58,277 nucleotides of DNA from a virus (taxonomy: Duplodnaviria; Caudoviricetes). The position numbers and the translations under genes are program-made. The DNA is taken from IMG/VR virus record IMGVR_UViG_3300028829_004880, positions 1 to 58,277 of that record, one strand, 5' to 3'. Of the stretch, positions 3,565-54,503 are shown piece by piece; position 1 is the stretch's first letter; each line of letters opens with the position of its first letter. The notes below the pieces were generated by a model. It ran no database searches. It was not told where the DNA came from and worked only from the letters and a program-made list of their open reading frames with translations.

Positions 3565-4047
3565 TTAAAATGAATAAGAAAAACCTGGCGTAACATACCA
3601 TGTTCCATCCCAACTAGAAGCTTGAGCAAACATTCCAAAGTTACCAAATTCCTTTGATGCACCTACACCATATTCTATAAACATTCCGTAGTCTCTATCA
3701 ATATATGCACCTACACCTAAAAGACCATAAATTGAAACAAAATCAAGTGAATGTGAAAATGCTGTCTTAACTTCCCACCAGTAATTTTCAATTACTTCTG
3801 GTGAAGTACTAACAAGGTTATTTCTACCTAATACACCACCAATTGACCAATTTTCAATCATAATACCAACTTCAAGTGAAGGGTATGATGTTGTTTGGAA
3901 ATCATTTCCATTGGACATTGATAATCCAGCTGCAATATAAGGTGTGATTGGTGACTCAAGTCCTTCAACGAATCCACCATCTTGTGTGCTCTGTGCAAAT
4001 GTAAGTGTCGAAACCAACAATATTGCGAATAATAATACTTTTTTCAT
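3565..4047 (-). CDS. putative small outer-membrane beta-barrel protein
   Basis: signal peptide, alternating hydrophobic strands, C-terminal YSF. Confidence 0.65.
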   Translation of the reverse strand: MKKVLLFAILLVSTLTFAQSTQDGGFVEGLESPITPYIAAGLSMSNGNDFQTTSYPSLEVGIMIENWSIGGVLGRNNLVSTSPEVIENYWWEVKTAFSHSLDFVSIYGLLGVGAYIDRDYGMFIEYGVGASKEFGNFGMFAQASSWDGTWYVTPGFSYSF

Positions 4048-4115: not shown

Positions 4116-5930
4116 TTATCGTAAAAGAGTGATTTGAACTCTACGATTAGTTGCTCGACCAGTTGACGTGTTGTTGGTTGCTATTGGTGTTGAATCACCA
4201 GCACCACTAACCTCTTGGATTCTATCTCTAGAAATTCCTCGACTAATTAAGTATTCAGCTACCGCATTTGCTCTATCTCTAGATAACGGTTGGTTGATTG
4301 AATTAGAACCAGTATTATCAGTATGTCCAATTAAGATTACTTTAGTTTGTTCTGCTTGAATTAACAAGTTATAGATTGTACTTAAGTCTCGATTAGATGT
4401 TGCTTGAATATTATCACTTCCAGTTGCGAAATTGATATGCCATTCACCACTTGCCATTACCTCAGTCTTAGTTGCTGTGTAATCTATAGCTTCTGTTTCA
4501 CCAGCTGTCATATTATCGATATCTTGACCAGCATTAAGTAGATATGTTAAATTAACACCTTCATTGTAAGGAATTACTCTATCAACCGATTCATTAAATC
4601 CGAATGGGTTAAGTTCTACTAAGTAGTTAGATACTTGATTGTATACTGACTTGTAACGATTGTTACCATCAGTGATTCCGTAATATTGAATTGCATCTGC
4701 ATATGATAATACTCGTGTACCACCCATGTTGTAAGACAATCCATTCTTAGTTCCTTTTTGTCCTTGGAACATTCCGTACCAATACTCTGGAGTTTCAAGA
4801 TTAAATGTAGTTTGAATCGCCTCAGACGCTCTTACTCTCCACTTGTCATACAACTTCATTTGATTAGTAGCTGTAAGTGTTGACTTAAGTATATTTGTTA
4901 CGATGTCTGGATGAGTTGCTGCCCATTCTTTAACAACTACAAGTGTTGTTGCCATTTGATTAGGGAAATCAGCTGTTGATGCGATATCTGTGAAACCTGT
5001 AAGGGCATCGAATACCATCTTATCACCTGGAGTCCAAGTAGCACACCCATCAACTTTTTTATCAATTGTCTTACCAGTAAGTTTACCATCAACTACCTCT
5101 TTAAGAGATACTGTGAATCCTTTCTTTTGAGATGCAATTAATTCTTTTGCAGAATTGATATAGTCATCATCAGCAGATGGAAATACATTAACCGCATTAG
5201 GGTCGTAAGTTGTAAAATCTGGATTAACCTTAAGGTTGTTAACTCCACAGAAGTTAAGTAACACTACCCAGTCACCATCACCTGGCACACACGATACTAA
5301 TGACCCTAACATACTATTTGGGTTTGATTTCCATTCAGATGGTCCGATTAATTTATCTTCACCATTAGACATTCCAAATGCACCTACAGCTTCTACATGG
5401 TATTTATCACCAAACTTATCATTAAGTGCTGATTGCATTGTTGATAGGTAATAAGGTACACCATCACCCATAATCATAATTCCCATTGCAGATTTATCTG
5501 ATGATGGATATTCTTGACCCGCATCATACTCTTCGATAAATTTCATCTGCATAGCTTTCAATTCAGAAAGCCAATCTTGACGAATTAATTCAAGATTTAC
5601 ACCATTCGCTTCCATTAACGAACCCGATGTTGTGAATGGACCACCATTTGCTACGGCAATACCTTGTTCACCATTCCAAGCATAACCAGCGACTCTAACA
5701 CGTGGATTTACTAAAATTTTAGTACTTGGTGTAGTACTTGGCAATGGAATAAATGCCGCTTGTGTAACGTTGTCGATAACGTCACCATTTTCATCTAAGG
5801 CAATGACATCAACTGAGCCATCTACTCTAAGACCTGGGGCAAATATATACAACCCACCACCTACGATTGCAAGTGCAATCACTAATAAAAAGATTTTGAA
5901 TCCTTTGTTAAATTTACTGAACATTTTCAT
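4116..5930 (-). CDS. substrate-binding-like protein fused to C-terminal OmpA peptidoglycan-binding domain
   Basis: N-terminal TM; C-terminal GHTDNTGS..N..LSRDRA and NRRVQI motifs. Confidence 0.8.
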   Translation of the reverse strand: MKMFSKFNKGFKIFLLVIALAIVGGGLYIFAPGLRVDGSVDVIALDENGDVIDNVTQAAFIPLPSTTPSTKILVNPRVRVAGYAWNGEQGIAVANGGPFTTSGSLMEANGVNLELIRQDWLSELKAMQMKFIEEYDAGQEYPSSDKSAMGIMIMGDGVPYYLSTMQSALNDKFGDKYHVEAVGAFGMSNGEDKLIGPSEWKSNPNSMLGSLVSCVPGDGDWVVLLNFCGVNNLKVNPDFTTYDPNAVNVFPSADDDYINSAKELIASQKKGFTVSLKEVVDGKLTGKTIDKKVDGCATWTPGDKMVFDALTGFTDIASTADFPNQMATTLVVVKEWAATHPDIVTNILKSTLTATNQMKLYDKWRVRASEAIQTTFNLETPEYWYGMFQGQKGTKNGLSYNMGGTRVLSYADAIQYYGITDGNNRYKSVYNQVSNYLVELNPFGFNESVDRVIPYNEGVNLTYLLNAGQDIDNMTAGETEAIDYTATKTEVMASGEWHINFATGSDNIQATSNRDLSTIYNLLIQAEQTKVILIGHTDNTGSNSINQPLSRDRANAVAEYLISRGISRDRIQEVSGAGDSTPIATNNTSTGRATNRRVQITLLR

Positions 5931-6042
5931 AATTTACTTTTTGTTTTTTAATTATTAAATTAATTTGTCGATACAAATATAGGTAAATTAATTTAATCTA
6001 CCAAATATTTGCTCGATTATTTTTATTTTTTTTTATTATTTA

Positions 6043-7143
6043 TTAAAATACCTCACCAAAACCACCAGACTGCATCTTGTCTTCGTGTGTTAATTGGTAC
6101 TCTGGATTACTATAAGACTTAGCTGATGCAACTGGGTCTTTCCCTGTATTAATATCATCAGCCAATGAATTCAAGTTTGCATATAATTCATCAGAGTCCA
6201 TTGCGTAGTTACTCGTAATACTATCAATATCTTTCAAATTACCAGCAGTAATTGCGATATCTTGTGCTATTGTTGTAGTTACAACATCCATTGCATATTC
6301 TAATTCCCATGGTGTCGTGAAAAGCATTGCATCCTTAGCAGTCTGAGTTGCTTCCTTAGACTTCTGTGCGAATGCATAATCCTTTTTAAGAATTTTAATT
6401 GTTGCATCGAAATCAAGAATCTTGATATCCATTGATGTTTCAACCATGAGTAATTTTTGGCTGAATTTCTTCATAATTGCCGCACGAGAACCATACTTTT
6501 TAACAAAGTTTTTCTCTTGTTCTAATTCATGACCCTTTCTTTGAGCGTCAGCAATTACCTTAAGGAAATCAGAATTAGCATTTACATACTTATCTTCACC
6601 CTTAGCTGAGACACCCATGGTGTTAACCATAGTATCCATAACTCCTTTGTATTTGTCAGCCTTCGCTTTAAGACTTGAAATTTTAGTCTCTAAGTTCTTT
6701 GCAGTCTTTTCTGATTTATCAGCCGAGATTTCCATATCTGTTTTAAGTTGAGATATGCTACCCTTAGACTTCTGGAAGTTCTTCTTATTCGTTTCCATTT
6801 TAGCACGTTGGTCCTCCAACTCAGCAAATGGTGCATGTTTGATTATTAGTTTATGCATAAAACGTGTGAAACGTTTAAGTCCCTTAAGAATTACTGGCAT
6901 TGCAATAACTGCTAATACAATTAAAATAAGTGTACTTGCAATCGCTAAGAATTGTCCAATTGCTTGGAAAACTGGTGGGAGTACATAAATCCATGAGAAA
7001 TATAATACTGCACCTAGTACAGCTAATTTAACGAAGAAGAACATTCCTTTCTCTCCTTTTCTAAAGGCATCTACCGACTTCCCGATATCACTAGACTCAA
7101 AGTGTCTAAGTATTGGAAGATTTTGCATTGATGAATTATCCAT
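6043..7143 (-). CDS. membrane-anchored coiled-coil protein (PspA-like, tentative)
   Basis: two N-terminal TM segments then long heptad-rich helix. Confidence 0.5.
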   Translation of the reverse strand: MDNSSMQNLPILRHFESSDIGKSVDAFRKGEKGMFFFVKLAVLGAVLYFSWIYVLPPVFQAIGQFLAIASTLILIVLAVIAMPVILKGLKRFTRFMHKLIIKHAPFAELEDQRAKMETNKKNFQKSKGSISQLKTDMEISADKSEKTAKNLETKISSLKAKADKYKGVMDTMVNTMGVSAKGEDKYVNANSDFLKVIADAQRKGHELEQEKNFVKKYGSRAAIMKKFSQKLLMVETSMDIKILDFDATIKILKKDYAFAQKSKEATQTAKDAMLFTTPWELEYAMDVVTTTIAQDIAITAGNLKDIDSITSNYAMDSDELYANLNSLADDINTGKDPVASAKSYSNPEYQLTHEDKMQSGGFGEVF

Positions 7144-7178: not shown

Positions 7179-7886
7179 TTATTTGATATTAGTTTTGATA
7201 CCATTTACCACAGTTGTAATTGTAGAAACGATTTTATCTTTAGCTATATTATTAGCCATGATTTTACACTCAATATCAGTAAGTGTAGGTGTATACTTAG
7301 AATCTATTAAACTTAATTGACTCTCTTTTTTTGATTTCTCCAAATTTAGTCTTACAATCTCATTGTTAATTCCATTCAACTCGTTGGTTAACATTGACTC
7401 TTCTTGACCCTTAGCTTGTAAAGCCTCTTCCCTCTTAGTATTACCATTCTCACTATAAGTAGTGTGAACCTTATTGATTTCACTGATGTAATAGTCTGAT
7501 TGTGAGATTAACGACTCTTTCGTAGCGTTAGCTGTCTTAGCCATTGTAAATGCCATATTATAAGTGGCTGGGTTAGTTGCACCCGCTTCTACTACCATCT
7601 TGAAGAATTCGTAGAAATCATACCCTTCCATGTCAAGACCATCAAAGCCTTTTTCATACATAGCCATGATTTTATCCAAGTGTGGACCACACGCTGGATT
7701 GTCTGGTGTTATCGGAGCCATTGTTGTTGGTGCCGATGTGGGTACTGTTGGTTCATGAAGAGGGGCTGATGCCGCACTCGACGGGAACTTGTTTGTGAAA
7801 CTTTGTTGTGAAGTGTTCGTCTCCTTTTTTTTGTTACCATCATCTCCTTCTTCATTGACGAAGATTAGGTCTTTTAAAAATCCCAT
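7179..7886 (-). CDS. hypothetical coiled-coil protein, first gene of ABC/OmpA operon
   Basis: long ORF downstream of TAnnTTTG promoter at 7927-7934. Confidence 0.6.
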   Translation of the reverse strand: MGFLKDLIFVNEEGDDGNKKKETNTSQQSFTNKFPSSAASAPLHEPTVPTSAPTTMAPITPDNPACGPHLDKIMAMYEKGFDGLDMEGYDFYEFFKMVVEAGATNPATYNMAFTMAKTANATKESLISQSDYYISEINKVHTTYSENGNTKREEALQAKGQEESMLTNELNGINNEIVRLNLEKSKKESQLSLIDSKYTPTLTDIECKIMANNIAKDKIVSTITTVVNGIKTNIK

Positions 7887-12246: not shown

Positions 12247-12276
12247 AAAAAAAGCCCGACCTTTATGGTCGAGCTT
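12247..12276 (-). terminator. attenuator terminator of tRNA array 1
   Basis: GCTCGACC-ATAAA-GGTCGGGC + T7. Confidence 0.85.
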
Positions 12277-12301
12277 ATCAATTTTCGTTATATATTTTAC
12301 A

Positions 12302-12391
12302 TTAACTTTTTGACAATATTCGACCACCCTTGGAACAATCTTCCTCGGCTGCAAAAAATGCAAAATCAAATATGTTAGTTACTGTTATCAT
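12302..12391 (-). CDS. leader peptide MITVTNIFDFAFFAAEEDCSKGGRILSKS
   Basis: hand-translated 29-aa ORF between promoter and terminator; run of F/D/A/E codons. Confidence 0.8.
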   Translation of the reverse strand: MITVTNIFDFAFFAAEEDCSKGGRILSKS

Positions 12392-12442
12392 TATTTCTAT
12401 TTTTTTGTGGAACTTCGTGTTCCTTGTTTATTAAATACAATG

Positions 12443-12450
12443 CAAATATA
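12443..12450 (-). promoter_or_regulatory. Bacteroidota-type -7 promoter element TATATTTG (array 1)
   Basis: TAnnTTTG consensus; same motif recurs at e.g. 5974, 7927, 10675, 19419, 45641, 50488, 52448, 53773. Confidence 0.75.
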
Positions 12451-12545
12451 CGAAAGTTATTTGAATTGACAAGTATTTTTTGTAATTATTTTTAAGTTAT
12501 TTTTACTTTCCCAGTGTTTACTGGGGTTTCAGAGCTAAAATATTT

Positions 12546-14671: not shown

Positions 14672-15514
14672 TTATTTATTTAAATAAGGTTCCATATAGT
14701 TAGGTAACCAACCAGATTTATCATATTGCCTTCTAACATAAACCCTTTTTTGTTCATCAGTTAAATCATCAAATGCCCATTCCCCCCAAACATACCCCTC
14801 TTCAAATTGAACTTGTAACCAAGCTTTTTTATTTGGACCTAAGTGTGGGTAATAGGTGTCTGGAAAATTAATGTATCTAAAACCACCCTCTATATTATAT
14901 TTTATTATATAGTCAAATATTTTATCAAGAGATTTAATTCTTAGGTCGGTAGGTAAGACTTCAAACCAACTAGGATATTCATCACGATTTTTACCATGTC
15001 CTTGTTGGAGTGATGCGGTTCCTATACTCCTTTTCATATGTCTTTTTACTTGTGAATCAAGATACATATCCTTAACCTTATCACCACCATATTGTAGGAT
15101 TTTATTAGATAATGGATTACCAGCCTCAAGTCTAGTTTTTATAAATCCCTTTTTAATTTCATCTGGTAGGATATCAAACATACTATCATTAATTTGGTTA
15201 CCCTTCTTTGCTCTTGTTGTAGCTAGTTTAATTCTTAATTCAGTATTTAACCTATTAAATTCATAGTCTTTAATGTGAAAACTACGCTCCATTCTATTGT
15301 TTAAATATATAGCTAAAGCATGCTCATCTAACATGGCTAATTCATAATCAACTAATTTATGTGGGCTGCCATCACTGATATTACCATTTTTACTAGCTAT
15401 TAACCTTTTTCTAAAGTATGTTTTCTTAGCCCAGTTTGGTAATTGGTTGTATTGGTATTCTGGAATTGTAAGTCCAGTATCTACGTATTGTGATATGAGG
15501 TCCTTATTGTTCAT
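14672..15514 (-). CDS. repeat-containing hypothetical protein, paralog of 15525-16190
   Basis: shared N-terminus MNNKDLIxQYVDTGLxIPEYQY. Confidence 0.65.
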   Translation of the reverse strand: MNNKDLISQYVDTGLTIPEYQYNQLPNWAKKTYFRKRLIASKNGNISDGSPHKLVDYELAMLDEHALAIYLNNRMERSFHIKDYEFNRLNTELRIKLATTRAKKGNQINDSMFDILPDEIKKGFIKTRLEAGNPLSNKILQYGGDKVKDMYLDSQVKRHMKRSIGTASLQQGHGKNRDEYPSWFEVLPTDLRIKSLDKIFDYIIKYNIEGGFRYINFPDTYYPHLGPNKKAWLQVQFEEGYVWGEWAFDDLTDEQKRVYVRRQYDKSGWLPNYMEPYLNK

Positions 15515-19072: not shown

Positions 19073-19229
19073 ATATTTTAATGTTTCACTTCTATTCTCT
19101 TTCCACACTTGACACATTTCTTAATCTCTATATTCTTGGTCCAGAAAAAAACTGTTCTCTCGAATTTATGACTACAAATTGTCGTTCTTATTTTATCTTT
19201 TATTATTTTCATTTCTAATTATTGTGCAT

Positions 19230-19261
19230 AAAAAAATCCGATACTGAATTTCAATATCGGA
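19230..19261 (-). terminator. attenuator terminator of tRNA array 2
   Basis: TCCGATATTGA-AAT-TCAGTATCGGA + T7. Confidence 0.85.
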
Positions 19262-19288
19262 CCTTAACTTGTTGTTATATCTTCAAAT

Positions 19289-19366
19289 TTAACAACACAG
19301 TCCGACACTTACTACTAATAAGACTAGTAGTGAAGAAAGACATAATATGTTGTTAACTGTTTGCAC
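19289..19366 (-). CDS. leader peptide MQTVNNILCLSSLLVLLVVSVGLCC (GTG start)
   Basis: hand-translated 25-aa ORF between promoter (19419-19426) and terminator; L/V/C rich. Confidence 0.75.
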   Translation of the reverse strand: MQTVNNILCLSSLLVLLVVSVGLCC

Positions 19367-19472
19367 TTTTTAAGTTTTTAAGTCGGCACACGAGGCACCT
19401 TGTTTATTAAATACATTGCAAATATACGAAAAACTTTTTAATAAGCAAGTATTTTTTAAATTTATTTTTAAA

Positions 19473-41262: not shown

Positions 41263-41799
41263 ACTAATAAATACACCTCACTCCAAGGAAATCAAGCTAT
41301 TCTTTCAACTTCAACCTCAACGTCTTCAAGTTTGTTTCTATTATCTACCAATAAACCTTCTAAAGCCTTCTCTATAGTTTTTTGAATAGTTTCTTCGTCG
41401 AAGCTACACCAAGGTGATACAACCTTCACAGTTGCTTTATATACTGTTGCCATAATATTAAGGTTTAATTTTTTACGATGAGGATAAGTAGTATTATTAT
41501 TACTAATAAGCAAGAGTAAATCCCCGTTAACCATCCTCTTATTGATTTAAACTGTTTTTCTGTCATAAACTAAGATTTAATTTCTATTAACTCTTTAATT
41601 GGTTGTTGTGTGAACCATCTTTTGTAAAATGGTAAGTTATACCATTCTAATATTTCTATGTAGTTGGTTAATGCAAATTTTCGCTCGTCTGATACTAATG
41701 TAAATGTCTTAATCATAATTAAGGTTATTTTACAAAGATACGAAATTAAAATTAATAAAACAATTTATTTGGATATAAATGACATCTTGGTCCTTGAAG

Positions 41800-41884
41800 C
41801 GGAGAGAACAGGAATCGAACCTAATACCCTTTCGGGTACCCTTTCTTTAGCAAAGAAGGACGGTCCCAGACCGCATTACTCTCC
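41800..41884 (-). tRNA. tRNA-Ser(GCT), long D stem
   Basis: loop TTGCTAA, long variable arm, G73. Confidence 0.8.
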
Positions 41885-42059
41885 ATTTGAAGTAGTAACT
41901 GGTTTTTCACCAGTATCAGTACTCTAGGGCTTATTTACCGTATCCCATCTCAATTAGGTGTAGGGCTACGGCTACTGATTCATCCCCTCGATAATGGCTG
42001 TTCCTACCAAAACCTTAACGACTTAACTCGTTAGTGATTAATTCACGATACTACTTTTG

Positions 42060-42131
42060 TACCCCCACCTAGACTCGAACTAGGATTATCGGTTTAGAAA
42101 ACCGAGGTTCTATCCCTTGAACTATGGGGGC
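42060..42131 (-). tRNA. tRNA-Arg(TCT)
   Basis: canonical cloverleaf. Confidence 0.88.
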
Positions 42132-42136
42132 ATCAT

Positions 42137-42577
42137 TTATTTATAAAGATATGACCTATAAATCTGTTCACTTACAATACACACCGCCTCAGCAGCATAG
42201 TCAACATTTTTATTGTCACCATAAATGGAAATCATTACATTGTATAAGTTATCATATGTTATCATCAGTGTTCGTACGATATTTCTAACATCTAACTCAT
42301 CTAATATTTCTAACCTTTCCTCTTTAATTGCTTGACCATATATTCTTCTAATAACTGGGAAAGATATAGTATCTAAATCTTCATGTAAATCAGTTGGTAG
42401 TGAAATATTCAACTCTATCAAATATAAAGCAACTTCATCTAAATGTTTAGAGATACTTAAATGAAATTGGCTTGGTAATTGTTCTAATAGACCACTCATT
42501 TCCCAAAACTTTATCATTTCTTCATCATTTTCATGATTCCCAAATTTATCTCTTCCGTATTCTACTAATTCACTCAT
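42137..42577 (-). CDS. protein resembling the N-terminal part of a T4-like major capsid protein
   Basis: KFWEMSGLLEQL and FPVIRRI motifs (recognised by eye). Confidence 0.4.
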   Translation of the reverse strand: MSELVEYGRDKFGNHENDEEMIKFWEMSGLLEQLPSQFHLSISKHLDEVALYLIELNISLPTDLHEDLDTISFPVIRRIYGQAIKEERLEILDELDVRNIVRTLMITYDNLYNVMISIYGDNKNVDYAAEAVCIVSEQIYRSYLYK

Positions 42578-42625
42578 ATCTTTTTCTTTTAATGATACGA
42601 ATTAACAATCGATTTGTAAATAGTT

Positions 42626-42706
42626 GAGACGGTGGAGGGAATCGAACCCACATTTTCAGCTCCTTTTACGGATGACAATTTAGAAAAATGCCTCGGCTAC
42701 ACCGCC
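42626..42706 (-). tRNA. D-armless tRNA-Arg(TCT)-like
   Basis: GGCGGTG/CACCGTC, TAGCCGAG linker, loop TTTCTAA, 23-nt variable region. Confidence 0.6.
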
Positions 42707-42714
42707 ATGTGTTG

Positions 42715-42788
42715 TACACTTACAGGGACTCGAACCCCGAATCTCTCGGTTCGTAGCCGAGTGCTTTATCCAATTAAGCGATAAGTGC
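42715..42788 (-). tRNA. tRNA-Arg(ACG)
   Basis: canonical cloverleaf. Confidence 0.9.
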
Positions 42789-42793
42789 ATTTG

Positions 42794-42866
42794 TGGACCC
42801 ACCCAGAATCAAACTGGGACCCGAAGTTTAGGAAACTTCAATTCTATTCAGTTAAACTATGGTTCC
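42794..42866 (-). tRNA. tRNA-Arg(CCT)
   Basis: GAAGT-TTCCTAA-ACTTC. Confidence 0.8.
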
Positions 42867-42978
42867 ATATACCTAAGATAAAAAGCAGTGTCTAGTTTCA
42901 TACGGTAACTTACTCCTAACTTACTTCCGTGCTGACATACAATAAGGGTTACCACCACGAGTATGCTTCTAGGTATTG

Positions 42979-43048
42979 TACCGAGTACGAGGTTCGAACT
43001 CGCTTAACCATCCATATGAAGGACGGTCCTTTTCCACTAAGCCTCGGC
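42979..43048 (-). tRNA. tRNA-Met(CAT), weak D arm
   Basis: CGTCC-TTCATAT-GGATG. Confidence 0.65.
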
Positions 43049-43060
43049 ATGTGTATATTG

Positions 43061-43132
43061 CTCTAGTGGAGAATTTCGAAATCTCGACCTATCCGTTAAC
43101 AGCGGATTGCTCTGCCTCTGAGCTACACTAGA
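43061..43132 (-). tRNA. tRNA-Asn(GTT)
   Basis: cloverleaf, G73. Confidence 0.88.
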
Positions 43133-43184
43133 ATATTAAAGTGCCAAATTGTTATTTTAATTGGTGATTTGGCACACCAATAAG

Positions 43185-43258
43185 TGGTCCCAGCTGGGCT
43201 CGAACCAGCGACCCTCGCATTATGAGTGCGATACTCTAACCAACTGAGCTATAGGACC
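43185..43258 (-). tRNA. tRNA-CAT (Met or lysidine-type Ile2)
   Basis: canonical cloverleaf, loop CTCATAA. Confidence 0.85.
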
Positions 43259-43278
43259 TGTAAAACATTTCTCTTTTT

Positions 43279-43596
43279 TTAATTTATCATTTCTAACGTA
43301 ATTGCCATCAAAAATGAACCAAGACCAGTACCAAAGAATGTTGCCCATGCATCAACAAGGTCAAATTGACCCTTCTTTAGTAATAAGTCCCAAATAACTT
43401 CCTTAGCTATACCAGCGGCTACACCAGCACCCACACCGACTAACACACCTCTTTCAATGTTATTGAAGGCTGTTCCATCATAAGCGAAGATAAGTCCTAC
43501 TATTACTGAGATACCAAATCCAGCATAGAAATGTAATTTTTTGTCTTTTGGTATTGAACCAATAAAATCTTTAATTTTTTTCATAATTTTTTTCAT
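43279..43596 (-). CDS. small membrane protein
   Basis: DKKLHF..G and KE..WD motifs, TM helices; start moved to 43596 to avoid tRNA overlap. Confidence 0.55.
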   Translation of the reverse strand: MKKIMKKIKDFIGSIPKDKKLHFYAGFGISVIVGLIFAYDGTAFNNIERGVLVGVGAGVAAGIAKEVIWDLLLKKGQFDLVDAWATFFGTGLGSFLMAITLEMIN

Positions 43597-43619
43597 AATA
43601 ATTGTTTTATTATAAATAG

Positions 43620-43699
43620 TCGGGAAAGTGGGATTCGAACCCACGTTTTCAAGTACCGCTACGAATATACATGATATAAGCATGCCTCGCTATATCCCG
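43620..43699 (-). tRNA. D-armless tRNA-Ile(TAT)-like
   Basis: TAGCGAG linker, GCATG-CTTATAT-CATGT, long variable region, canonical T arm. Confidence 0.6.
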
Positions 43700-43790
43700 A
43701 TTGGTGTGCTCATCCTAATGCCTCACATCCCCGAAGGTATGGTTTGCATAACAGGGCTATAGTTCCTGTTCTAAGCGTGGGTAGAACGTG

Positions 43791-43869
43791 TTGCGCTGGT
43801 GGATTCTGAGACCACATTTCCAACACCTTTACGAATATCCAAGTTATCAGCTTGGCTCGGTACAGCGCA
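43791..43869 (-). tRNA. D-armless tRNA-Ile(GAT)-like
   Basis: TACCGAG linker, CCAAG-CTGATAA-CTTGG, long variable region, odd T loop. Confidence 0.55.
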
Positions 43870-43875
43870 ATTTAG

Positions 43876-43958
43876 TTGTGTCGGTGGGAATCGAACCCAC
43901 TTTGTACTTTCGTACCCACGTTATCAGCGTGGTGCCTAAACCATCCAACCCCGACACA
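43876..43958 (-). tRNA. tRNA-Ile(GAT) with variable-arm hairpin
   Basis: CCACG-CTGATAA-CGTGG, GTAC-GAAA-GTAC. Confidence 0.75.
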
Positions 43959-44239
43959 ATGTGGGTGGAAGCCCCATTACTTCCACCTTGTTTTTCTGTT
44001 GTGTTTCCACGTTTTATACATTCTCATTTGGAAACCCATTAACCCAGTACCATGAAACGATACACATTCATCCCAATAAATAGGGTAGTTAATGCTGTAT
44101 TGAATAGCTAAGTATTCTTTACTTGTTTTTGCTTTGTTCAGTTTTGCTCTGTTTCTGTTAATACTCATAAGCTTATAAGTCTGTTGTTTAGCAGACCTTA
44201 AAGCATGTCGAATTCTTTCTTCATAATTTTAAATTTTAG

Positions 44240-44313
44240 CGGACTGACTTGGATTCGAACCAAGACCTTTTCGATTAACAGTCGAAAGCATTTGACCATT
44301 GTGCTACCAGTCC
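44240..44313 (-). tRNA. tRNA-Asn(GTT)
   Basis: cloverleaf, G73. Confidence 0.85.
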
Positions 44314-44370
44314 ATGAAAGAGCTTTGCACTCTATTTGGGGGTCTGGCTTTACCCCTAAGGTTATATGTG

Positions 44371-44444
44371 GGTGACCGACGAGAATCGAACTCGCATTAA
44401 CTGCACCACAAGCAGTCGTGTTAAGCCATTACACTACGGTCACC
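44371..44444 (-). tRNA. tRNA-His(GTG)
   Basis: G-1:C73, loop TTGTGGT. Confidence 0.88.
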
Positions 44445-44658
44445 ATGTCAGTAAACCTGTTTTTGTACAATAAACAAGGTACGTTTATTATTCCAATTTT
44501 GCGTTTACTATCCTGTTTACCAATTCTTTACTTCTCTTAAGTTTATCCTTGATACGTTTGATTTCTTCTTCTGTTGGATTATCGTTTAAGGTATATTCAA
44601 TACCATGTCTCTTACAATAATCAATTACTTCTTTTATATACATAATCTTAATTTTTAG

Positions 44659-44744
44659 CGGAGAGAACTGGACTCGAACCAGCACTACGAATGAACGTAG
44701 AACAACTTTCCAAGCTGCGGCAGTACCATTATGCTTACCTCTCC
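44659..44744 (-). tRNA. tRNA-Ser(GGA)
   Basis: class II, G73. Confidence 0.85.
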
Positions 44745-44803
44745 ATGGGTCCCGTTATAATTTTTACATCTCATCACATCACGGGACCACGGGGATGAGT
44801 TTG

Positions 44804-44898
44804 CGGAGAGAGAGGGATTCGAACCCTCACGCCACCCAGAGGACGAGACGGTTTTCAAAACCGCTACCGTTACCCAGAATCTATCGGTTAACCTCTCC
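44804..44898 (-). tRNA. tRNA-Ser(TGA), enlarged D loop
   Basis: class II, loop TTTGAAA, G73. Confidence 0.8.
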
Positions 44899-44961
44899 GT
44901 TTTGTAGCATTCTAACCTATAAGTTAGACAAGACACCGCTGAGTGCTACACCCAGTCCTCG

Positions 44962-45034
44962 CACAGACGGTAGAAATCGAATCCACCCAGTCGGATTTGG
45001 AATCCAACTCGCCAGCCTTGGGACATTCGCCTGT
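44962..45034 (-). tRNA. tRNA-Trp(CCA), divergent
   Basis: TTGGA-TTCCAAA-TCCGA, G73. Confidence 0.7.
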
Positions 45035-45039
45035 ATTTG

Positions 45040-45112
45040 CACGGGTGGTAGGACTCGAACCTACAGCCAACGGTTTTGGAGACCGCTACTCTACCAATTG
45101 AGCTACACCCGT
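45040..45112 (-). tRNA. tRNA-Trp(CCA)
   Basis: canonical cloverleaf. Confidence 0.9.
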
Positions 45113-45166
45113 GTTTGGACCAAGATGTCAAAGAACTTATTAAAACCTACCGTTGTAGGTTCTGTG

Positions 45167-45238
45167 GGTGTAAGGACGGTATCGAGCCGTCTTCTCTAGA
45201 TTCACAGTCTAACGCTTCACCTTAAAGCTTCAAACACC
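45167..45238 (-). tRNA. tRNA-His(GTG), divergent
   Basis: G-1:C73, loop CTGTGAA, acceptor mismatches. Confidence 0.7.
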
Positions 45239-45438
45239 ATATATTTTAGAGTTTTACAAAAACGACCATCTTTCCATGTTCCTTCTTGAAGGTTAACTCC
45301 CCCTTGTATCCAGACGCATCTGCTATCTTTCTATACTTGTCTACTATCAAATCAAAATTTTCTTTAAAATCTATCATCTTTTCAACTCCTAACTTTCTTC
45401 CTAAATCTCCCTCACTCATATTTCAAATTTTTAAGCAC

Positions 45439-45468
45439 AAAAAAAGCCTTGATATTATATCAAGGCTT
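45439..45468 (-). terminator. attenuator terminator of tRNA array 3
   Basis: GCCTTGATA-TAA-TATCAAGGC + T7. Confidence 0.85.
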
Positions 45469-45492
45469 CGTTAATTTTATATTATTGAATTC

Positions 45493-45591
45493 TTAGAACT
45501 CAATGATGTCATTAAACATACCTTGACCGTTATGGATGCTATTGCGTCTCCAATTACTAATCGAAATCATATGTATGTTTATTGTTCTCAT
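45493..45591 (-). CDS. leader peptide MRTINIHMISISNWRRNSIHNGQGMFNDIIEF
   Basis: hand-translated 32-aa ORF between promoter (45641-45648) and terminator. Confidence 0.8.
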   Translation of the reverse strand: MRTINIHMISISNWRRNSIHNGQGMFNDIIEF

Positions 45592-46421
45592 TTTTCTTTT
45601 TTGTTGTGGGACTATTTGTCCCTTTTAATTAAATACTCTGCAAATATACAAAAGTTATTTCGATTTGTCAAGTATTTTGCAATTTATTTTCAATTTATTT
45701 TAAAAATCGTTGTTTTTAGTGGCTGGTTTCGTGAATACCACTGAAATTACTTGTGGGTCTAAATGTATATTAAAGTATGGAATATCACGATACTTTGCTT
45801 CTAATGTTTTTTTAGCAGCGAATATACTAGGATAATCATTTGGTGATGATACACCAAACTTAACCTTTACTGGAGTTCTCTCATTTGATGGAGAATCAAC
45901 CAAGTGAGTTACATATTTCATTAACTCATCACCATTACCCACCGTGTTATCAGAAGTTATATATGGAGTACCCTCTTTGATATCAGTTTCAGTAGCCATG
46001 GTTGGTAATGATTCTATTGTATTTAAATACCATTCTTGTACTTCATCTGTCATTCTATCATAGTAAACATTAATACTCCATTGCTCACCATTTTGGTCAG
46101 TACCTACGAATGTATCCTCACCAGTCACATCTTCCTTATCTTCGAATGTAACAACACGCTCAGTACCATCTTGGTTACTAATAAACCTTACAGTTGGTGA
46201 TTGATTGTGCCAGCCAACTATCTTAGCTGATGATGCATCATTTGAAGCTAGGCTACTTACACCATCCTCATTGATTCTCTTAATCTTATTGAACGTGTTT
46301 GTGAAGCTTTCAAATATTGCTTTATGTGTATTAGCTCTTAATTTAGCTCTATCTGCGTTGTTATAAAATTTCTTACTTCTCATGATTAAACTCTTTTATT
46401 ATAAATATTGCATTTCTCTTA

Positions 46422-46859
46422 TTAAATTGATTTTTTCAAGATATTCATAACAGATTTCTTGAATTTATCATTTTCTTCTGGTGTAACTCTTAGTTCACCA
46501 CCAAAAGCTCTAGAAAAAACCCTCTCTTTAGATGGATAATCTCCGTCTTCTCGGATATTAATCATGGTTATAGTTCGAGTTAAAAAATTTATAAGATACT
46601 TTACACCTATAGCTTTACTATATTTAACGGGTGGTGGGTTTGTAAAAATATACATTATTTTTTCATCACCAAATAAATCAAACTCTCCAGCTTCACATTT
46701 ATTAAGAGCATCCATTATACTACTTACATCAGTTTTATTTTCATTAGACTCATAAACCACTTCAACGTCTTCCGATACAATACCCTTAGATTCTAAATGT
46801 CTTGATTCAGCTAAAAGGTTAGCCTTCTTAATATGTTTGTCTTTATCGAATCGTCTCAT
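46422..46859 (-). CDS. hypothetical protein with duplicated N-terminal leader
   Basis: first 26 aa identical to 46864-47436. Confidence 0.65.
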   Translation of the reverse strand: MRRFDKDKHIKKANLLAESRHLESKGIVSEDVEVVYESNENKTDVSSIMDALNKCEAGEFDLFGDEKIMYIFTNPPPVKYSKAIGVKYLINFLTRTITMINIREDGDYPSKERVFSRAFGGELRVTPEENDKFKKSVMNILKKSI

Positions 46860-47436
46860 AGTATTAAGCTAATATATCCCCAAAGTCAAAACTAACAGCC
46901 CAACCTCTTAAATTGCAATATTCTTTCCACAATTCACCATTTTTATTTTCATCATATCCAACATAACGTGGATTTCCAACAAAATTCATTGGTTCATGAA
47001 TTTTATCACCAAATTTTCTGTAAAGTGTTTGAGTACTAACACCTCTATATTTAGCGGCACTGGCAGATGAGATAACTTTCTCTATAAACATAATGGCATT
47101 TTTCCATTCAATGGGTGCGTCCATTTGTGCAAGTGCCACATCTACTTTTGGTTTATCAATTGAAAGCCACGTACTTGTTTTTTTAAGTTGGTTAGGTTTT
47201 ACCCCAAGATGATTAAAAAAGCCTTTGTAGGCGATTTTCTGCTCCTTAGACATATTACCATATTTATAATTATGAATCCAAATATCAACCTCATCACTTG
47301 AATATGTTTTCCCACTTCGTTCATCAGTATAGACCTTTCCTTCATCTTCCGTTATAACACCCTTAGATTCTAAATGTCTTGATTCAGCTAAAAGGTTAGC
47401 CTTCTTAATATGTTTGTCTTTATCGAATCGTCTCAT
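46782..47436. repeat. exact 78-bp direct repeat (46782-46859 and 47359-47436)
   Basis: base-by-base comparison. Confidence 0.9.
46864..47436 (-). CDS. hypothetical protein with duplicated N-terminal leader
   Basis: first 26 aa identical to 46422-46859. Confidence 0.65.
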   Translation of the reverse strand: MRRFDKDKHIKKANLLAESRHLESKGVITEDEGKVYTDERSGKTYSSDEVDIWIHNYKYGNMSKEQKIAYKGFFNHLGVKPNQLKKTSTWLSIDKPKVDVALAQMDAPIEWKNAIMFIEKVISSASAAKYRGVSTQTLYRKFGDKIHEPMNFVGNPRYVGYDENKNGELWKEYCNLRGWAVSFDFGDILA

Positions 47437-47447
47437 GTTTATAAATA

Positions 47448-48608
47448 CTATAACATTACCTTAAACTTCTCCGTTTCAAGTTGTTTTATTGCTTTACCCA
47501 TTTCTGGTCCAGCTTCCACACCTAACTCTTTTTGAGCATCAGCACCAGTTACACTCAATCTAAAGTCTATAAATGCGTCAAGCATCTTAGAATCTAAGTT
47601 GATAAATCTACCGAACTTTCTTATTTGTTCATCTGATAACCCAGCGTTAACTTGTTGCTTCTTGAATACAAATACATCCTCTGGGTTATTGAATTGTTGT
47701 AATGCAACCAAGAATGTGATAGCCTTAACCTCAGTACTTGAGTAAGTCAACTTATTAAGTACCTTACCTAACTTATGTGGGTCGTTATCCTTAAGTAACC
47801 AAGCAAGTAGCACAATTGGGTCTCTTTCTTCTAAGAAGTTCTTAGATACACTTAATCCCTTGAATACATCATTGAATAAGTTGTACTTATCTAATAACCC
47901 TAAGAATTGGTTGATTGTCTTTGTTGTCTTAACACCCTTTAAGAATTCATCTCTGATTCTCTCTGGACTAATACCATCAAGACTAGCATCCTTCTTAAGT
48001 GCCGCATCAACGTTTGGTTCCAATTCACTACCAAATCTACCAGCAAATCTAATTGCTCTAAGGATTCTAAGTCTATCTTCTTCAAATCTTTCCTCTGGTG
48101 CGCCAACAGTTCTCACAATACCTTTCTTAAGGTCTGAGATACCACCTACAAGGTCAACTATCTCATTTGTATTTATATCAAAGAAAAGTGCATTGATTGT
48201 AAGGTCACGTCTCTTAACATCTTGGTCAATAGTCGTAAACTCAACTGCATCTGGTCTTCTACCAGAACCTATATCTTTTCTGAATGTTGCGATTTCATAT
48301 TCATCAGTATCACTGAATACATTGATTACTCCGAATGCCTTACCAGTTGGGATAGTCTTGAAACCACCCTTCGCCATTATAGCTTCCACTTGGTCTGGGT
48401 TAGCATCAGTTGCGAGGTCCCAATCCTTAGGTGTTTTACCTAAAAGGGCATCTCTTACAGCACCACCAACAACATACAATTTAAAACCGTTTTTAACAAA
48501 CACGTCTTTAATCTCAAGTATATCACTTGGTATTGTAAGGTTAAACTTAACTCGGTTCTCCGTGATAAGTCCTTCTCTAATTCTATTTCTAATAAATTCT
48601 TTCATCAT
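47448..48608 (-). CDS. cca: CCA-adding enzyme (class II tRNA nucleotidyltransferase)
   Basis: VGGAVRD..G..PKDWD, EIATFR, RRDLTINA, EDRLRILRAIRF, ERIRDE. Confidence 0.9.
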   Translation of the reverse strand: MMKEFIRNRIREGLITENRVKFNLTIPSDILEIKDVFVKNGFKLYVVGGAVRDALLGKTPKDWDLATDANPDQVEAIMAKGGFKTIPTGKAFGVINVFSDTDEYEIATFRKDIGSGRRPDAVEFTTIDQDVKRRDLTINALFFDINTNEIVDLVGGISDLKKGIVRTVGAPEERFEEDRLRILRAIRFAGRFGSELEPNVDAALKKDASLDGISPERIRDEFLKGVKTTKTINQFLGLLDKYNLFNDVFKGLSVSKNFLEERDPIVLLAWLLKDNDPHKLGKVLNKLTYSSTEVKAITFLVALQQFNNPEDVFVFKKQQVNAGLSDEQIRKFGRFINLDSKMLDAFIDFRLSVTGADAQKELGVEAGPEMGKAIKQLETEKFKVML

Positions 48609-48642
48609 AACAAATATAGTCATTTAAATCTTAGTATCCAAA

Positions 48643-49401
48643 TTAATTCCTCATATTTTTACCCAACAACCCTTCACGATACATTCTTGTCTTAATATCC
48701 CTAACCCATCGATTCTTAACCTCAACACTGAAAGTACTAGTCATTGTGTTTAGTGCTGGTGAGTATTTTATCATGTCCTCAAATGTTAATGAATCCCAAA
48801 TCTCACCATACTTACGTTTTAATTGTACTATATTGTGAATTTGTGATTGGATTTCCATTTTATCCGCATTTATTGGTATGCCTTTTTTGGTTATACCTCT
48901 TTCACTAGCCCTTTCTATTCGTTTATTAATATGTTTATTATGTAACGTGTCATCAATCCAATGTACCAATTCATGGTGGATACTACCTTTTATTGATGAT
49001 GAGCTAAACTCATTCATAAAATTACTAAGTTGATTATCTGGTAAATAACTAGCGGCAGATTTTATTGACCCACCATTATCCTTTATAAAACTTATAGCAC
49101 TTGTGTTTGGACCAATAGATATTACATGTTCTGTTGGGGCATAGAAATTACCTCCACCCTCATTAATAAGTATAATACAAAGATTAAGTTTGTCTGCTTT
49201 TACTGCTAAGGGTGATTTTAATGTTGATGTATTAATCAGTGTTTTCTTAAACATATCATCCGTGATAATTCCAGTTTTATCAATTTCCTCATAATCCTTT
49301 TTAAAATAAGTATCATAAATGAAATCCACATCATCAGTAACATCCATAAGGCGTTCCTCAATTAATGATTCTCTAATTCTATTTCTAATAAATTCTTTCA
49401 T
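48643..49401 (-). CDS. HExxH zincin-like protein with MKEFIRNRIRE leader
   Basis: IHHELVHW motif. Confidence 0.5.
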   Translation of the reverse strand: MKEFIRNRIRESLIEERLMDVTDDVDFIYDTYFKKDYEEIDKTGIITDDMFKKTLINTSTLKSPLAVKADKLNLCIILINEGGGNFYAPTEHVISIGPNTSAISFIKDNGGSIKSAASYLPDNQLSNFMNEFSSSSIKGSIHHELVHWIDDTLHNKHINKRIERASERGITKKGIPINADKMEIQSQIHNIVQLKRKYGEIWDSLTFEDMIKYSPALNTMTSTFSVEVKNRWVRDIKTRMYREGLLGKNMRN

Positions 49402-49865
49402 ATGTTCATAAACATTTCAACATTGTGACCAGAGTCTATAAGTGTTTGGAAACCAAATGATTTATAGAAACCTACAAGGTCATTTATTCTAAGCCCTTTG
49501 AATCCCATTGGTGACGCATTCAAGTACATTATGTTATCACCCTCACTTCTAGCATATGCAATGCTTTTCTGCATAAGTGCCTTTCCAATTCCAGTACCCT
49601 TAGCTTTATCTTCAACATCTAAATGTTCTATCTTAGTAAATCTATCGTTGGGGAACAATTTATTGTAATCATTATCATCAAAATCTATGTCTGGGTCTTC
49701 TATAGCGTCCTCAAATTCTCTATAAGCATCGAATATCATTACTATAACTATCTTACCAAGTGTTTCTCTATTTTTGATAGCACTTATAGTTACCCCGTCT
49801 TCATCCTCATCATAATCAAAGATAAGTTCATTCATTGCATCCTCATATAAAGACATTAATTTCAT
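49398..49865 (-). CDS. GNAT acetyltransferase
   Basis: V...KGTGIGKALM and FYKSFGF motifs; start moved to 49865. Confidence 0.8.
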   Translation of the reverse strand: MKLMSLYEDAMNELIFDYDEDEDGVTISAIKNRETLGKIVIVMIFDAYREFEDAIEDPDIDFDDNDYNKLFPNDRFTKIEHLDVEDKAKGTGIGKALMQKSIAYARSEGDNIMYLNASPMGFKGLRINDLVGFYKSFGFQTLIDSGHNVEMFMNI

Positions 49866-49888
49866 ACTAATAAATACTTCATATAAAT

Positions 49889-51817: not shown

Positions 51818-51822
51818 ATATG

Positions 51823-51872
51823 TGGGAGTAGATAGTATCGCTCTACCAATAAGACTTACATCTTATACTCCC
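51823..51872 (-). ncRNA. 50-nt mini-tRNA-like RNA
   Basis: same fold as 51691-51739, AGCGATA loop. Confidence 0.6.
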
Positions 51873-52074
51873 ATTTGCACTTCCTATCCCTCGGTATCGT
51901 ATAGTGCTAACCGCTAAAGTACCCCACAATAGACTTACACTATTAGCTATCGTTACCATGACGATAGGTGGAGTATGATTCGCTGAAATCATTTAAATAC
52001 TTCAACGTAATGTTGTCAGAAAGGGACTGTTTTTTTTTTTTGAAAAAAGTTAATTGCTGAATCCTTTCTTTTAG

Positions 52075-52179
52075 TGGGGAGACTAGGACTTGAACCTAGA
52101 CTTACCGAAGTCGTACTCGAATATTTCATAAAGAAGGAGGTTCTCTATGAAATAGTATTCTCTCTTATACTATCTCCCC
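52075..52179 (-). ncRNA. tRNA-like RNA with 13-bp anticodon stem and CCTCC loop
   Basis: GGGGAGA/TCTCCCC-A, GTAT/ATAC D stem, CTAGG-TTCAAGT-CCTAG. Confidence 0.7.
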
Positions 52180-52849
52180 AGTTGTTGATTAAGGTCAGAG
52201 GTCACCATTCTAGATGGAGTTCGAACATTGCTGTTACACACTTAGGACCCTTAGACCTTAATCAATTTTTTTAAGTCACAGAATAATGGTTTAGTGTTTT
52301 TTTTACATGGGTCTAGACACCATGGCGGTTTATTTTATGTGGAACCTATACTTAACCACTTCCTTTAGATTTTGTTTTACGGTTTGCCGTAATTATCCTT
52401 TTTGACTATATCTTAATTTTCAATGAACTATTTCGCTTAATAGAATACAAATATACTACATATATACTCACTTGTCAAGTAAAATTTCATTTTTCTTTGA
52501 AATTAATTTACTTTTCCTTGATTTTCAATGATTTATTATCCATTTCACCAACAATAATAAATATACCTTGTTTCTTATTTAGATAATAAACTACATTTAA
52601 TACCTTATAATATTGGTGGGTTTCTTCAATCCAGACAATTTCATCATATCTAGGTATGTGTTTTAATTTTACACCTTGTTTAATTGGTTTCCAATCTTTA
52701 TCAAGAATTGAAATACTCGTACGTTTAAATAAGTTTATCATACCTTAAATATAACATTTTTAATAAATTTGTCAACAATTAGACTTTATTTTCAATTAAA
52801 ATGATATTTATTAGTATAAGATAATAAGTTTAACTAAAAAATATAAATT

Positions 52850-53248: not shown

Positions 53249-53370
53249 AACGTTGTTTTTATGATAAATACCTTCGTAAACGTAAAAGTATAAAAACAAC
53301 GAAGCCCCGCATTCTTGTCAATACGAGGCTTAATATTTCACTCCCAACTTGTGGGTGTGGAGCGTTAGCG

Positions 53371-53739
53371 TGGAGTTGGAGAGATTCGAACTCTCGTCTT
53401 GCTTACACATAAAGTGTTTTCTACATGCTTATCTAGTTTCTAATTCTAGCAAAGTTTACTAGTTCCCGATTTTACAAGTCGGTGTTTCTAATAAAAGTTA
53501 TCTTGGATATATGTTTACTTCGTTTATCATTGAAGTTCGGTACGATACCAGTACCATGTGCTGTTTTAGGCTACAGCCATCTCTCCGTCAAGCACACCTA
53601 TCGATGCGTTGTCAAGGAAATTTTCGGATACAGTTAAGTTTCCAGTTAAATTTGTGTCTCAGTTTTAACAGCTTGTCCACTTCGCTGTGCATGCTTACAA
53701 ATCATGTTTTAATAAACAATCAAATGCCAGTCAACCCCA
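53371..53739 (-). ncRNA. ssrA: tmRNA; tag (A)GNLTVSENFLDNASIGVLDGEMAVA at 53566-53643
   Basis: GGGGTTG/CAACTCC-A with G3:U70, 5' GGCATTTGA, T arm GAGAG-TTCGAAT-CTCTC, resume context TTAACT-GGA. Confidence 0.9.
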
Positions 53740-54503
53740 TAAATTAAAGAACGTGTATCTTTTAAATATGTGCAAATATACTAAAAGTTTTATCTAATGT
53801 CAAGTTTTTTAATAAAAAAAGAGGAAAACTTTCGAATCCCTCTTTTATTGTGTTACTTCTTATTGTTATTTTTATTCTTATTTAATCGGTTAGTAATTGT
53901 TTACCACCCTTGATTATTGTTTTATTTAAGTTTTGTATTTTGGTGTCTAACTTATCACACCTAGAGTCTATGACCCTTCTTGTTTCTAAATCTGTATCAT
54001 TGGTTGTTCGATATAAGTCATCAAACCTCTGATTCATTTCATTTGTTAAGCTATCTAAATCTGTATAATCAACCTTATTCTTCAACTTAAAGAACGCAAC
54101 CACTATAGCCGTAACTATAGCAACAACACCCAATGTTGAAGCGACTGATATCAATATTAATATAATTGTTTCCATATATTTTTATTTTTTTTTATGGAAG
54201 TAACACAATTTTAATAATTATTCTATTCCCAAGTTACAGTTATCACCTCTTTACGAGTTACTTCGTTCCAATCTTCATCATAATGATAATTTTCACTACG
54301 TGTTAACATCCAAAAGAATAGGAAGTACTTCTTATCCGATTCTCTTTGTACAACAACATTATGACATTCCCCATCACAATCTCTACTTGGATAATCCTCA
54401 ACGAAATTATAAGTCTCACCATTTATTTCCCAACTATCTTCACTTGTGAAGTCATCAATTTCTTCTTCACTTACCGTGAATCTTTCTCTTTCTTTTACCA
54501 TAA

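Follow-up and report, generated by a model that had tools for sequence, protein, structure and literature searches.

How does a large phage regulate a block of transfer RNA (tRNA) genes? The question is raised by a locus in a viral contig of 58,277 bases (IMG/VR record IMGVR_UViG_3300028829_004880; Duplodnaviria, Caudoviricetes), which was analysed at its full length and is referred to here as the window; its G+C content is 34.8%. At positions 45439–45648, an initial annotation had described a leader in which eighteen consecutive codons come from only seven amino acids, placed ahead of an array of tRNA genes for the same seven, and had interpreted it as a transcription attenuator. On computational grounds, we consider it likely that this unit is a ribosome-mediated (leader-peptide) transcription attenuator gating a phage operon of 16 tRNA genes, which are probably made only when ribosomes read the matched codons slowly.

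Nearly all long open reading frames (ORFs) of the window, its transfer-messenger RNA (tmRNA) gene and all 32 tRNA genes called by ARAGORN are encoded on the minus strand. The attenuator feature is on this strand too, so that in transcript order the range goes from 45648 to 45439, from the −7 box of a promoter to the U-run of an intrinsic terminator. The features that define an attenuator at the sequence level are all present in the unit (45674..45436, Table 1), namely a promoter, a short ORF, regulatory codons, an intrinsic terminator, an antiterminator that excludes it, and a helix between the first two of three pairing segments (the 1:2 helix). The leader ORF at 45591..45493 lies 48 nt from the −7 box.

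The sensor, which spans codons 4–21 of the leader ORF, consists of five Ile, four Asn, three Ser, two His, two Arg, one Met and one Trp codons, confirming, on the minus strand, the 18-codon run that had been reported. In the six-frame translation of the window (116,550 codons), it is the only run longer than 10 drawn from this seven-residue set, and 0.00024 runs of at least 18 are expected, which excludes a chance origin of the sensor. When seven-residue sets were chosen at random, a run of at least 18 appeared somewhere in the window in 65 of 2000 trials; the set considered here was predefined by the adjacent tRNA genes, and the run lies directly upstream of them. Of the 31 leader residues, 24 fall in the set, against an expected fraction of 0.38 (p = 1e-5).

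The downstream array contains 13 tRNA genes found by ARAGORN and three detected by Rfam alone. On our reading, these 16 genes are His, Trp (twice), Ser(UGA), Ser(GGA), His, Asn, Ile(GAU), Ile(UAU), Met, Asn, Arg(CCU), Arg(ACG), Arg(UCU) (twice) and Ser(GCU). The gene at 43699..43620 (minus strand; Rfam score of 33.1 bits) lacks a D arm and has a long variable region; UAU is central in its seven-base anticodon loop, and it was therefore assigned by eye to Ile(UAU) and not to Thr(tgt), the ARAGORN call. Three other genes on the same strand, all missed by ARAGORN, also had their anticodons read by eye: a His(GUG)-like tRNA with a weak acceptor stem at 45237..45167 (43.8 bits), a Ser(UGA) tRNA at 44898..44805, which scores with the Rfam Sec model alone (34.4 bits), and an Arg(UCU) tRNA at 42706..42627, in which the D arm is absent and the variable region is long (28.8 bits). 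On this reading of the anticodons, the amino-acid set of the array is exactly that of the sensor, so that the proposed identity with the tRNAs at 41800–45238 was borne out once the Thr call had been re-read as Ile. Using standard wobble and the same by-eye reading, all 18 sensor codons are decodable by anticodons of the array. The sampling of several isoacceptor boxes noted initially was also found, with all three Ile codons, two Arg boxes and both Ser boxes represented in the sensor, while no sensor codon probes the Ser(GGA) and Arg(CCU) tRNAs of the array.

The same arrangement occurs elsewhere in the window, where two paralogous units head other arrays (Table 1). The three units have a common promoter, 5′ hairpin, N-terminal codons and terminator layout (alignment A1, with a mean column identity of 73%), and their sensors differ, each fitting its own array. 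The leader of unit 1 includes an 11-codon run of Phe, Asp, Ala and Glu, whereas no other run from these residues in the window exceeds 6, and 15 of the 24 codons in the leader of unit 2 are Leu, Val or Cys. A strict pattern built from the shared 5′ region matched one viral contig, of 327,676 bases and belonging to an unrelated phage (G001). The same design precedes all four multi-tRNA arrays of this contig (4/4), each leader drawing on the amino acids of its own array: Pro/His/Gln; Asp/Glu/Val/Leu/Ala/Trp; Lys/Tyr; and a set of eight amino acids. Of the 5040 ways to assign the seven leaders of the window and G001 to the seven arrays, the true one gives the best match, and no other equals it. 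When two mismatches were allowed in G001, the pattern returned one true unit and two probable chance sites; locus L007 has no tRNA.

A wider scan with the promoter pattern alone returned at least 114 viral loci, of which, among the matches listed, 21 have a tRNA gene on the same strand within 1.5 kb; the remaining 93 of the at least 114 have no same-strand tRNA within this distance and were set aside. The 21 comprise three duplicates (L079, L086 and L106, of G001 unit E, L080 and L066, respectively), three single-tRNA cases without a leader (L034, L040 and L061), two loci with degenerate leaders (L037 and L109) and 13 with an intact leader and terminator. Together with the three window units and the four of G001, these 13 form a set of 20 units, in which the leader was defined by a fixed rule as the first ATG/GTG ORF of 15–60 codons after the −7 box. 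Arrays were defined as same-strand ARAGORN tRNAs separated by gaps of at most 1000 bases, and the tests of leader against array used the 16 units with at least 2.5 kb of downstream sequence, leaving out L020, L070, L073 and L113.

In these 16 units, none of 200,000 permutations reached the observed leader–array match score. An amino acid that has a tRNA in the array is present in the leader in 78 of 79 cases, compared with 125 of 241 for amino acids that have none, and the association holds when stratified by amino acid (chi-square of 62.7, p = 2e-15). The fit extends to anticodons: leader codons probe 96 of the 104 anticodon species at least once, whereas synonymous resampling gives a mean of 89.4 and does as well in 42 of 5000 resamplings. 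Among phages, the same amino acid may be found in different blocks, as is the case for His, Trp, Phe and Cys, and the leaders track it. This comparative match of leaders to their own arrays across units decisively supports the attenuator reading.

Beyond the sensors, most leaders in the window, in G001 and at the other loci begin with Met and a basic or polar residue, followed by an Asn or Asp codon and an ATA Ile codon at about positions 5–7. This N-terminal pattern is independent of the tRNAs in the array, and in the 45591..45493 unit it overlaps segment 1. As for the two degenerate leaders, that of L037 has no canonical ATG/GTG start, although frame, segment 2 and terminator are retained, and comparison with L062 shows that the sensor part of L109 is gone. 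In G001, a stretch of about 270 bases (L006, approximately 15160..14890, minus strand), G+C-richer than its surroundings and structured as judged by eye, lies between an attenuator terminator and the first Pro tRNA gene. The eight-amino-acid array of the same contig (L005) ends with a tRNA with anticodon CUA, of the amber suppressor type and labelled Pyl by ARAGORN, and also holds a tRNA with anticodon ACA; the CUA/ACA entries are at 4047..3976 and 7861..7790 (minus strand).

An attenuator also needs alternative RNA pairings, and the initial annotation had proposed that an upstream stretch of the leader can pair with the 5′ arm of the terminator. Folding recovered this pairing. From codon 21 to the end of the terminator 5′ arm, the antiterminator fold joins 45527..45520 with 45466..45459 (8 bp) and 45515..45511 with 45475..45471 (5 bp), with an energy of −18.5 kcal/mol (z = −4.62) that was equalled in 0 of 200 shuffles. 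The duplex between the ORF and the terminator 5′ arm has an energy of −11.4 kcal/mol, against a shuffle mean of −5.9 (p = 0.006). The fold of the full leader contains the 5′ hairpin, the 9-bp 1:2 helix (45581..45573 with 45521..45513), the stop-codon hairpin and the terminator (z = −6.36). Since the pairings of segment 2 with segment 1 and with segment 3 overlap, they are mutually exclusive, a layout known from the trp attenuator model. A terminator and a short leader ORF are present in 20 of 20 units of the fixed-rule set, and in 16 of the 20 the duplex between ORF and 5′ arm beats 500 shuffles at p ≤ 0.05 (mean z of −3.0). The duplex always involves the last third of the ORF, although the paired sequences vary between units.

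The effect of ribosome position was modelled on the nascent transcript, considering the RNA downstream of the ribosome and ending the transcript after the terminator 5′ arm. For the 45591..45493 unit, the probability (P) that the 5′ arm is already paired upstream is 0.88 with the A site on codons 1–17, drops to 0.75, 0.41, 0.20 and 0.15 at codons 18–21, and later lies between about 0.2 and 0.46. A step down at the end of the matched codons was obtained in 20 of 20 units. The sensor therefore ends about where a stalled ribosome would start covering segment 2. With every sequence-level requirement of an attenuator in place and the comparative match between leaders and arrays, the interpretation offered initially is well supported as a predicted function.

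Several observations weigh against this reading. The exact agreement between sensor and array hangs on the by-eye re-reading of one ARAGORN call; if the Thr call is kept, the matched run grows to 21 codons, counted from codon 1. Codons 4–6 belong to an N-terminal motif that is also found in leaders whose arrays have no Ile or Asn tRNAs, and therefore only codons 7–21 are surely array-specific. In paralogous unit 2, the Pro tRNA has no Pro codon in the leader (the sole miss among the 79 cases), and three Ser codons and one Gly codon have no matching tRNA. Because many units share ancestors, the p-values overstate independence, and two of the 15 related units, among the matches listed, are those with a degenerate leader (L037 and L109). 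In four of the 20 units the antiterminator duplex is not significant against shuffles: window unit 1 (p = 0.064), G001 unit E (0.14), L023 (0.84) and L062 (0.92). Without a ribosome, the nascent RNA already has its 5′ arm in an upstream pairing with P = 0.60, and the untranslated default may therefore be leaky, not off; across the 20 units, the ribosome-free antiterminator probability ranges from 0.17 to 1.00, and the hold exerted by the 1:2 helix is not general. Moreover, equilibrium folding of the full leader with a ribosome barrier gives the terminator a probability of about 0.97 at every ribosome position, and the switch would therefore need kinetic trapping of the antiterminator, as in classical attenuators. 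Full-leader equilibrium folding is thus uninformative for this unit, and the nascent-transcript model was used instead.

The clearest mismatch comes from a related phage locus (L091), which is 77–93% identical to the window over the segments aligned by blastn. Its leader is 100% identical from the start codon through codon 27, whereas the promoter spacer and the 57-codon ORF that follows the terminator differ, as do, with compensatory changes, the 5′ hairpin (one pair) and the terminator stem. No Trp tRNA was found in the L091 array, which is cut after two genes by the 1000-base gap rule, though the leader keeps its Trp codon. At the position of the two Trp genes of the window, L091 carries a 229-codon ORF (5619..6308, minus strand), which appears HNH-like from several Cys-x-x-Cys motifs, read by eye with no family search behind the reading. 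This ORF may be a mobile endonuclease that displaced the Trp genes, and the mismatch may reflect a recent change.

Other functions could be proposed for the same parts. The unit might be a general switch for translation failure or amino-acid starvation, with identical hardware but no gauging of particular tRNAs. A stalled ribosome cannot separate a missing tRNA from an uncharged one, nearly any starvation would trip a switch that samples seven or eight amino acids, and a silent tRNA array is induced under translational stress in Anabaena, according to two reports (PMC8421152; PMC10272220). A generic stress sensor, however, needs no fit between each leader and its own array, and the match of 78/79 versus 125/241, the tuning at the anticodon level and the differences between the leaders of one genome make this explanation unlikely. 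We regard as improbable a post-transcriptional role, in which the ORF and the hairpin might govern how the precursor is processed, how stable it is or how the 57-codon ORF is translated, the hairpin acting as a constitutive terminator or as an insulator of the upstream gene. Such a role would agree with equilibrium folding, in which the terminator is always favoured, and with the small ORF present after the terminator both in the 45591..45493 unit and in unit 2, but the promoter separates the leader from the upstream gene, no ORF intervenes between terminator and tRNA in unit 1 and most relatives, and the complementarity between ORF and terminator arm, whose sequence varies between units, is left without a role.

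It is very improbable that the ORF encodes a small functional peptide, or that it is a chance ORF with a composition unrelated to the tRNAs. Short ORFs are frequent in A+T-rich DNA and the product of unit 2 does resemble a hydrophobic helix, yet the expected number of such runs is that given above for the sensor, the composition tracks the arrays over 16 units, and no family match was found for the leader. Direct sensing of tRNA by the RNA without a ribosome, in the manner of a T-box, would suit a process that regulates tRNA supply; nevertheless, no T-box or other riboswitch or cis-regulatory family in Rfam matched at the gathering score in the window or at E ≤ 1 in 45400–45700, one leader would have to bind seven kinds of tRNA, and the signal lies in codons of a reading frame, all of which makes this the hardest of the four to credit.

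The ribosome-mediated attenuator would operate as follows. The flavobacterial-type promoter would start the transcript and a ribosome would load on the 32-codon leader. If codons 4–21 are decoded fast, the ribosome would cover segment 2 while the polymerase makes segment 3, leaving the terminator 5′ arm free to pair with its 3′ arm, and transcription would stop at the U-run; once the ribosome has passed, segment 1 would hold segment 2. If any of the seven kinds of aminoacyl-tRNA is scarce, the ribosome would stall in the sensor, upstream of segment 2, which would then pair with the emerging segment 3; the terminator would form too late, and the polymerase would read through into the 57-codon ORF and the tRNA genes. 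In this scheme, we infer the translation of the ORF, the coupling of ribosome and polymerase in the host, the kinetic trapping and the physiological trigger, and the parts, their exclusive pairings, the codon-to-tRNA match and its conservation are read from the sequence. The products of the array are the tRNAs that are sensed, and the attenuator would therefore act as a negative-feedback gauge of supply, one per tRNA block. More tentatively, and with considerable doubt, giant phages of flavobacteria-like hosts might possess a modular tRNA homeostat, in which each block is gated by a codon roster at anticodon resolution. It might top up exactly those tRNA species that become depleted in the infected cell, whether by host shut-off, by an anticodon-nuclease defence or in some other way, in which case the attenuators would be counter-defence sensors. 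Leader and array would co-evolve with the movement of tRNA genes from block to block.

Table 1. Coordinates of the attenuator unit, of the block it would regulate and of the two paralogous units in the window.
Feature	Coordinates	Strand	Description or basis
Promoter, flavobacterial sigma-A type	45639..45674	−	TTG-containing upstream element and −7 box TAnnTTTG at 45648..45641
5′ hairpin of leader transcript, 5 bp, loop of 5	45608..45622	−	Folding; equivalents in both window paralogues
Leader ORF, 32 codons and stop	45591..45493 (45493..45591)	−	A-rich stretch ahead, no Shine-Dalgarno sequence
Sensor, codons 4–21	45582..45529 (45529..45582)	−	Exclusively Ile, Asn, His, Met, Ser, Trp and Arg
Segment 1	45573..45581	−	9-bp pairing with segment 2 in the full-length fold
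Segment 2, codons 22–27	45511..45527	−	45521..45513 with segment 1, or 45527..45520 and 45515..45511 with segment 3
Stop-codon hairpin, palindromic	45484..45504	−	Folding; leader stop in the loop
Segment 3	45458..45475	−	Terminator 5′ arm and five bases upstream; antiterminator partner of segment 2
Intrinsic terminator	45436..45469	−	12-bp stem with 3-base loop (45469..45443), then seven U; terminator scan and folding
57-codon ORF	45246..45419	−	From terminator to first tRNA; ORF call, conserved in L091
Regulated block (predicted)	41799..45237	−	16 tRNA genes with small ORFs interspersed; ARAGORN, Rfam and by-eye anticodons
Paralogous unit 1	12247..12470	−	Promoter, leader ORF 12391..12302, terminator 12274..12254; heads Phe/Glu/Asp/Ala array
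Paralogous unit 2	19230..19450	−	Promoter, GTG-start leader ORF 19366..19289, terminator 19261..19237; heads Cys/Leu/Pro/Val array

The promoter pattern derived from the attenuator site has 14 matches in the window with at most three mismatches, all on the minus strand, compared with 0.40 expected from shuffles, and the attenuator promoter scores 11/12 on a sigma-70 scan. Within the tRNA block, no further match to the promoter pattern was found, and the sole other terminator-like site on the minus strand falls inside a tRNA gene. Downstream of the promoter at 10708 there is an ordinary protein gene and no leader, nor was a leader found upstream of the lone tRNA-Met at 51817. The region ahead of this tRNA (52440..51818, minus strand) has a promoter of the attenuator type and, after it, about 600 bases without a leader ORF that look by eye like structured non-coding RNA. 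The phage-encoded tmRNA (53806..53368, minus strand) is also behind a promoter of this type. About 2 kb upstream of the attenuator, a gene at 48623..47448 (minus strand) encodes a tRNA nucleotidyltransferase (PHROG 2244, E = 2.7e-59). Between attenuator 2 and tRNA-Cys there is a 44-codon ORF (19212..19081, minus strand) with two Cys pairs, which matches phrog_4188 and has a weak YhfH-like match of 21 bits, under the Pfam cut-off.

Homology searches against several databases returned little for this region. Pfam and PHROGs gave no match for the 57-codon ORF or for the neighbours at 45703–46383, 42140–42577 and 46867–47436. In the Rfam scan of the window, the gathering score was reached by tRNAs and one tmRNA alone; none of the leader families (His, Thr, Leu, Trp, Phe) reached it in the window or appeared at E ≤ 1 in 45400–45700. 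Three sub-threshold sRNA matches in 45400–45700 at E ≤ 1, to MicC, SpF39 and PsrR1, scored 22–29 bits against thresholds of 42–90 and were taken as chance hits on a terminator-bearing stretch. A megablast of 41000–58277 against 50,697 phage records gave just two matches, of 79 and 54 bases, and no annotated relative that could be used.

The public runs that best match the window are marine metagenomes, and we infer, though not firmly, that the host is a marine flavobacterium-like bacterium. TAnnTTTG is the −7 consensus of sigma-A in flavobacteria (PMC9723704), and the mRNAs of Bacteroidetes are described as lacking Shine-Dalgarno sequences (PMC6847099). Two RNA libraries of one marine study yielded assembled contigs from this locus, one covering 45351–45561 and crossing the terminator and the other covering 45256–45448, at depths of 3.8 and 4. 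The DNA runs of the same study cover the same stretch at similar depth; carry-over of DNA is possible, and these contigs therefore show neither transcription nor read-through.

If the attenuator works as read here, it would explain how large phages regulate many tRNA genes, provide a natural read-out of the tRNAs that limit translation during infection, and tie phage tRNA arrays, in a testable manner, to the depletion of host tRNAs. The leaders also constitute a comparative data set in which each tRNA gene acquired, lost or relocated amounts to a natural experiment on the design of the sensor, with the loss of the Trp genes in L091 as a first case.

Multivalent leaders are familiar from enterobacteria, where ilvGMEDA is controlled through Ile, Leu and Val codons and thr through Thr and Ile codons; trp, his, leu and pheA are further examples of leader control. 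The phage unit resembles them in having a short translated ORF with regulatory codons (translation being predicted here), a terminator and an antiterminator that exclude each other, a 1:2 helix, and an outcome decided by the position of the ribosome. In contrast, the enterobacterial leaders regulate biosynthetic enzymes, whereas the phage unit would regulate tRNA genes, with a product that feeds back directly on the sensor; its promoter and initiation signals are of the flavobacterial type, and it has no match to an Rfam leader. The sensors differ as well. Enterobacterial leaders have runs of one to three kinds of codon, and the phage sensor covers seven amino acids, mostly one to five times each, with eight covered in a relative, so that the initial view of it as broader than the textbook multivalent leaders holds. 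To our knowledge, sensors of seven or eight amino acids, tuned to isoacceptors, are the broadest known. The pheST operon of Escherichia coli, with its pheM leader, offers another parallel, as an attenuator by which a synthetase is controlled through the supply of its cognate aminoacyl-tRNA. It is likewise a leader-peptide attenuator acting on a component of the translation apparatus, but its target is a synthetase and one amino acid is sensed, whereas the putative targets of the phage unit are the tRNAs themselves, for many amino acids. T-box elements also respond to tRNA charging through transcription antitermination; unlike the phage unit, which has no T-box match, they bind one uncharged tRNA directly and need no ribosome.

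Closer to the likely host, leader-peptide attenuation has been described upstream of amino-acid biosynthesis operons in Flavobacterium psychrophilum (PMC9723704). These leaders have in common with the phage unit the likely host phylum, the TAnnTTTG promoter type and the regulatory principle, and differ in that their targets are cellular amino-acid operons. The nearest published functional analogue that we found is the trn operon of Anabaena sp. PCC 7120, a long tRNA array induced by translational stress (PMC8421152; PMC10272220). As proposed for the phage, an accessory tRNA array is kept low and turned on when translation falters. Its control is different, however, being exerted by the repressor TrcR, which acts on direct repeats overlapping the −10 box, with no codon-matched sensor, and the terms 'leader peptide' and 'attenuat' have 0 occurrences in PMC8421152. 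Full-text literature searches found, among the results listed, no published account of leader-peptide control of tRNA genes. Attenuation as such is thus known, from amino-acid biosynthesis and from a synthetase operon, and what differs in the system proposed here is its use on tRNA genes in a virus.

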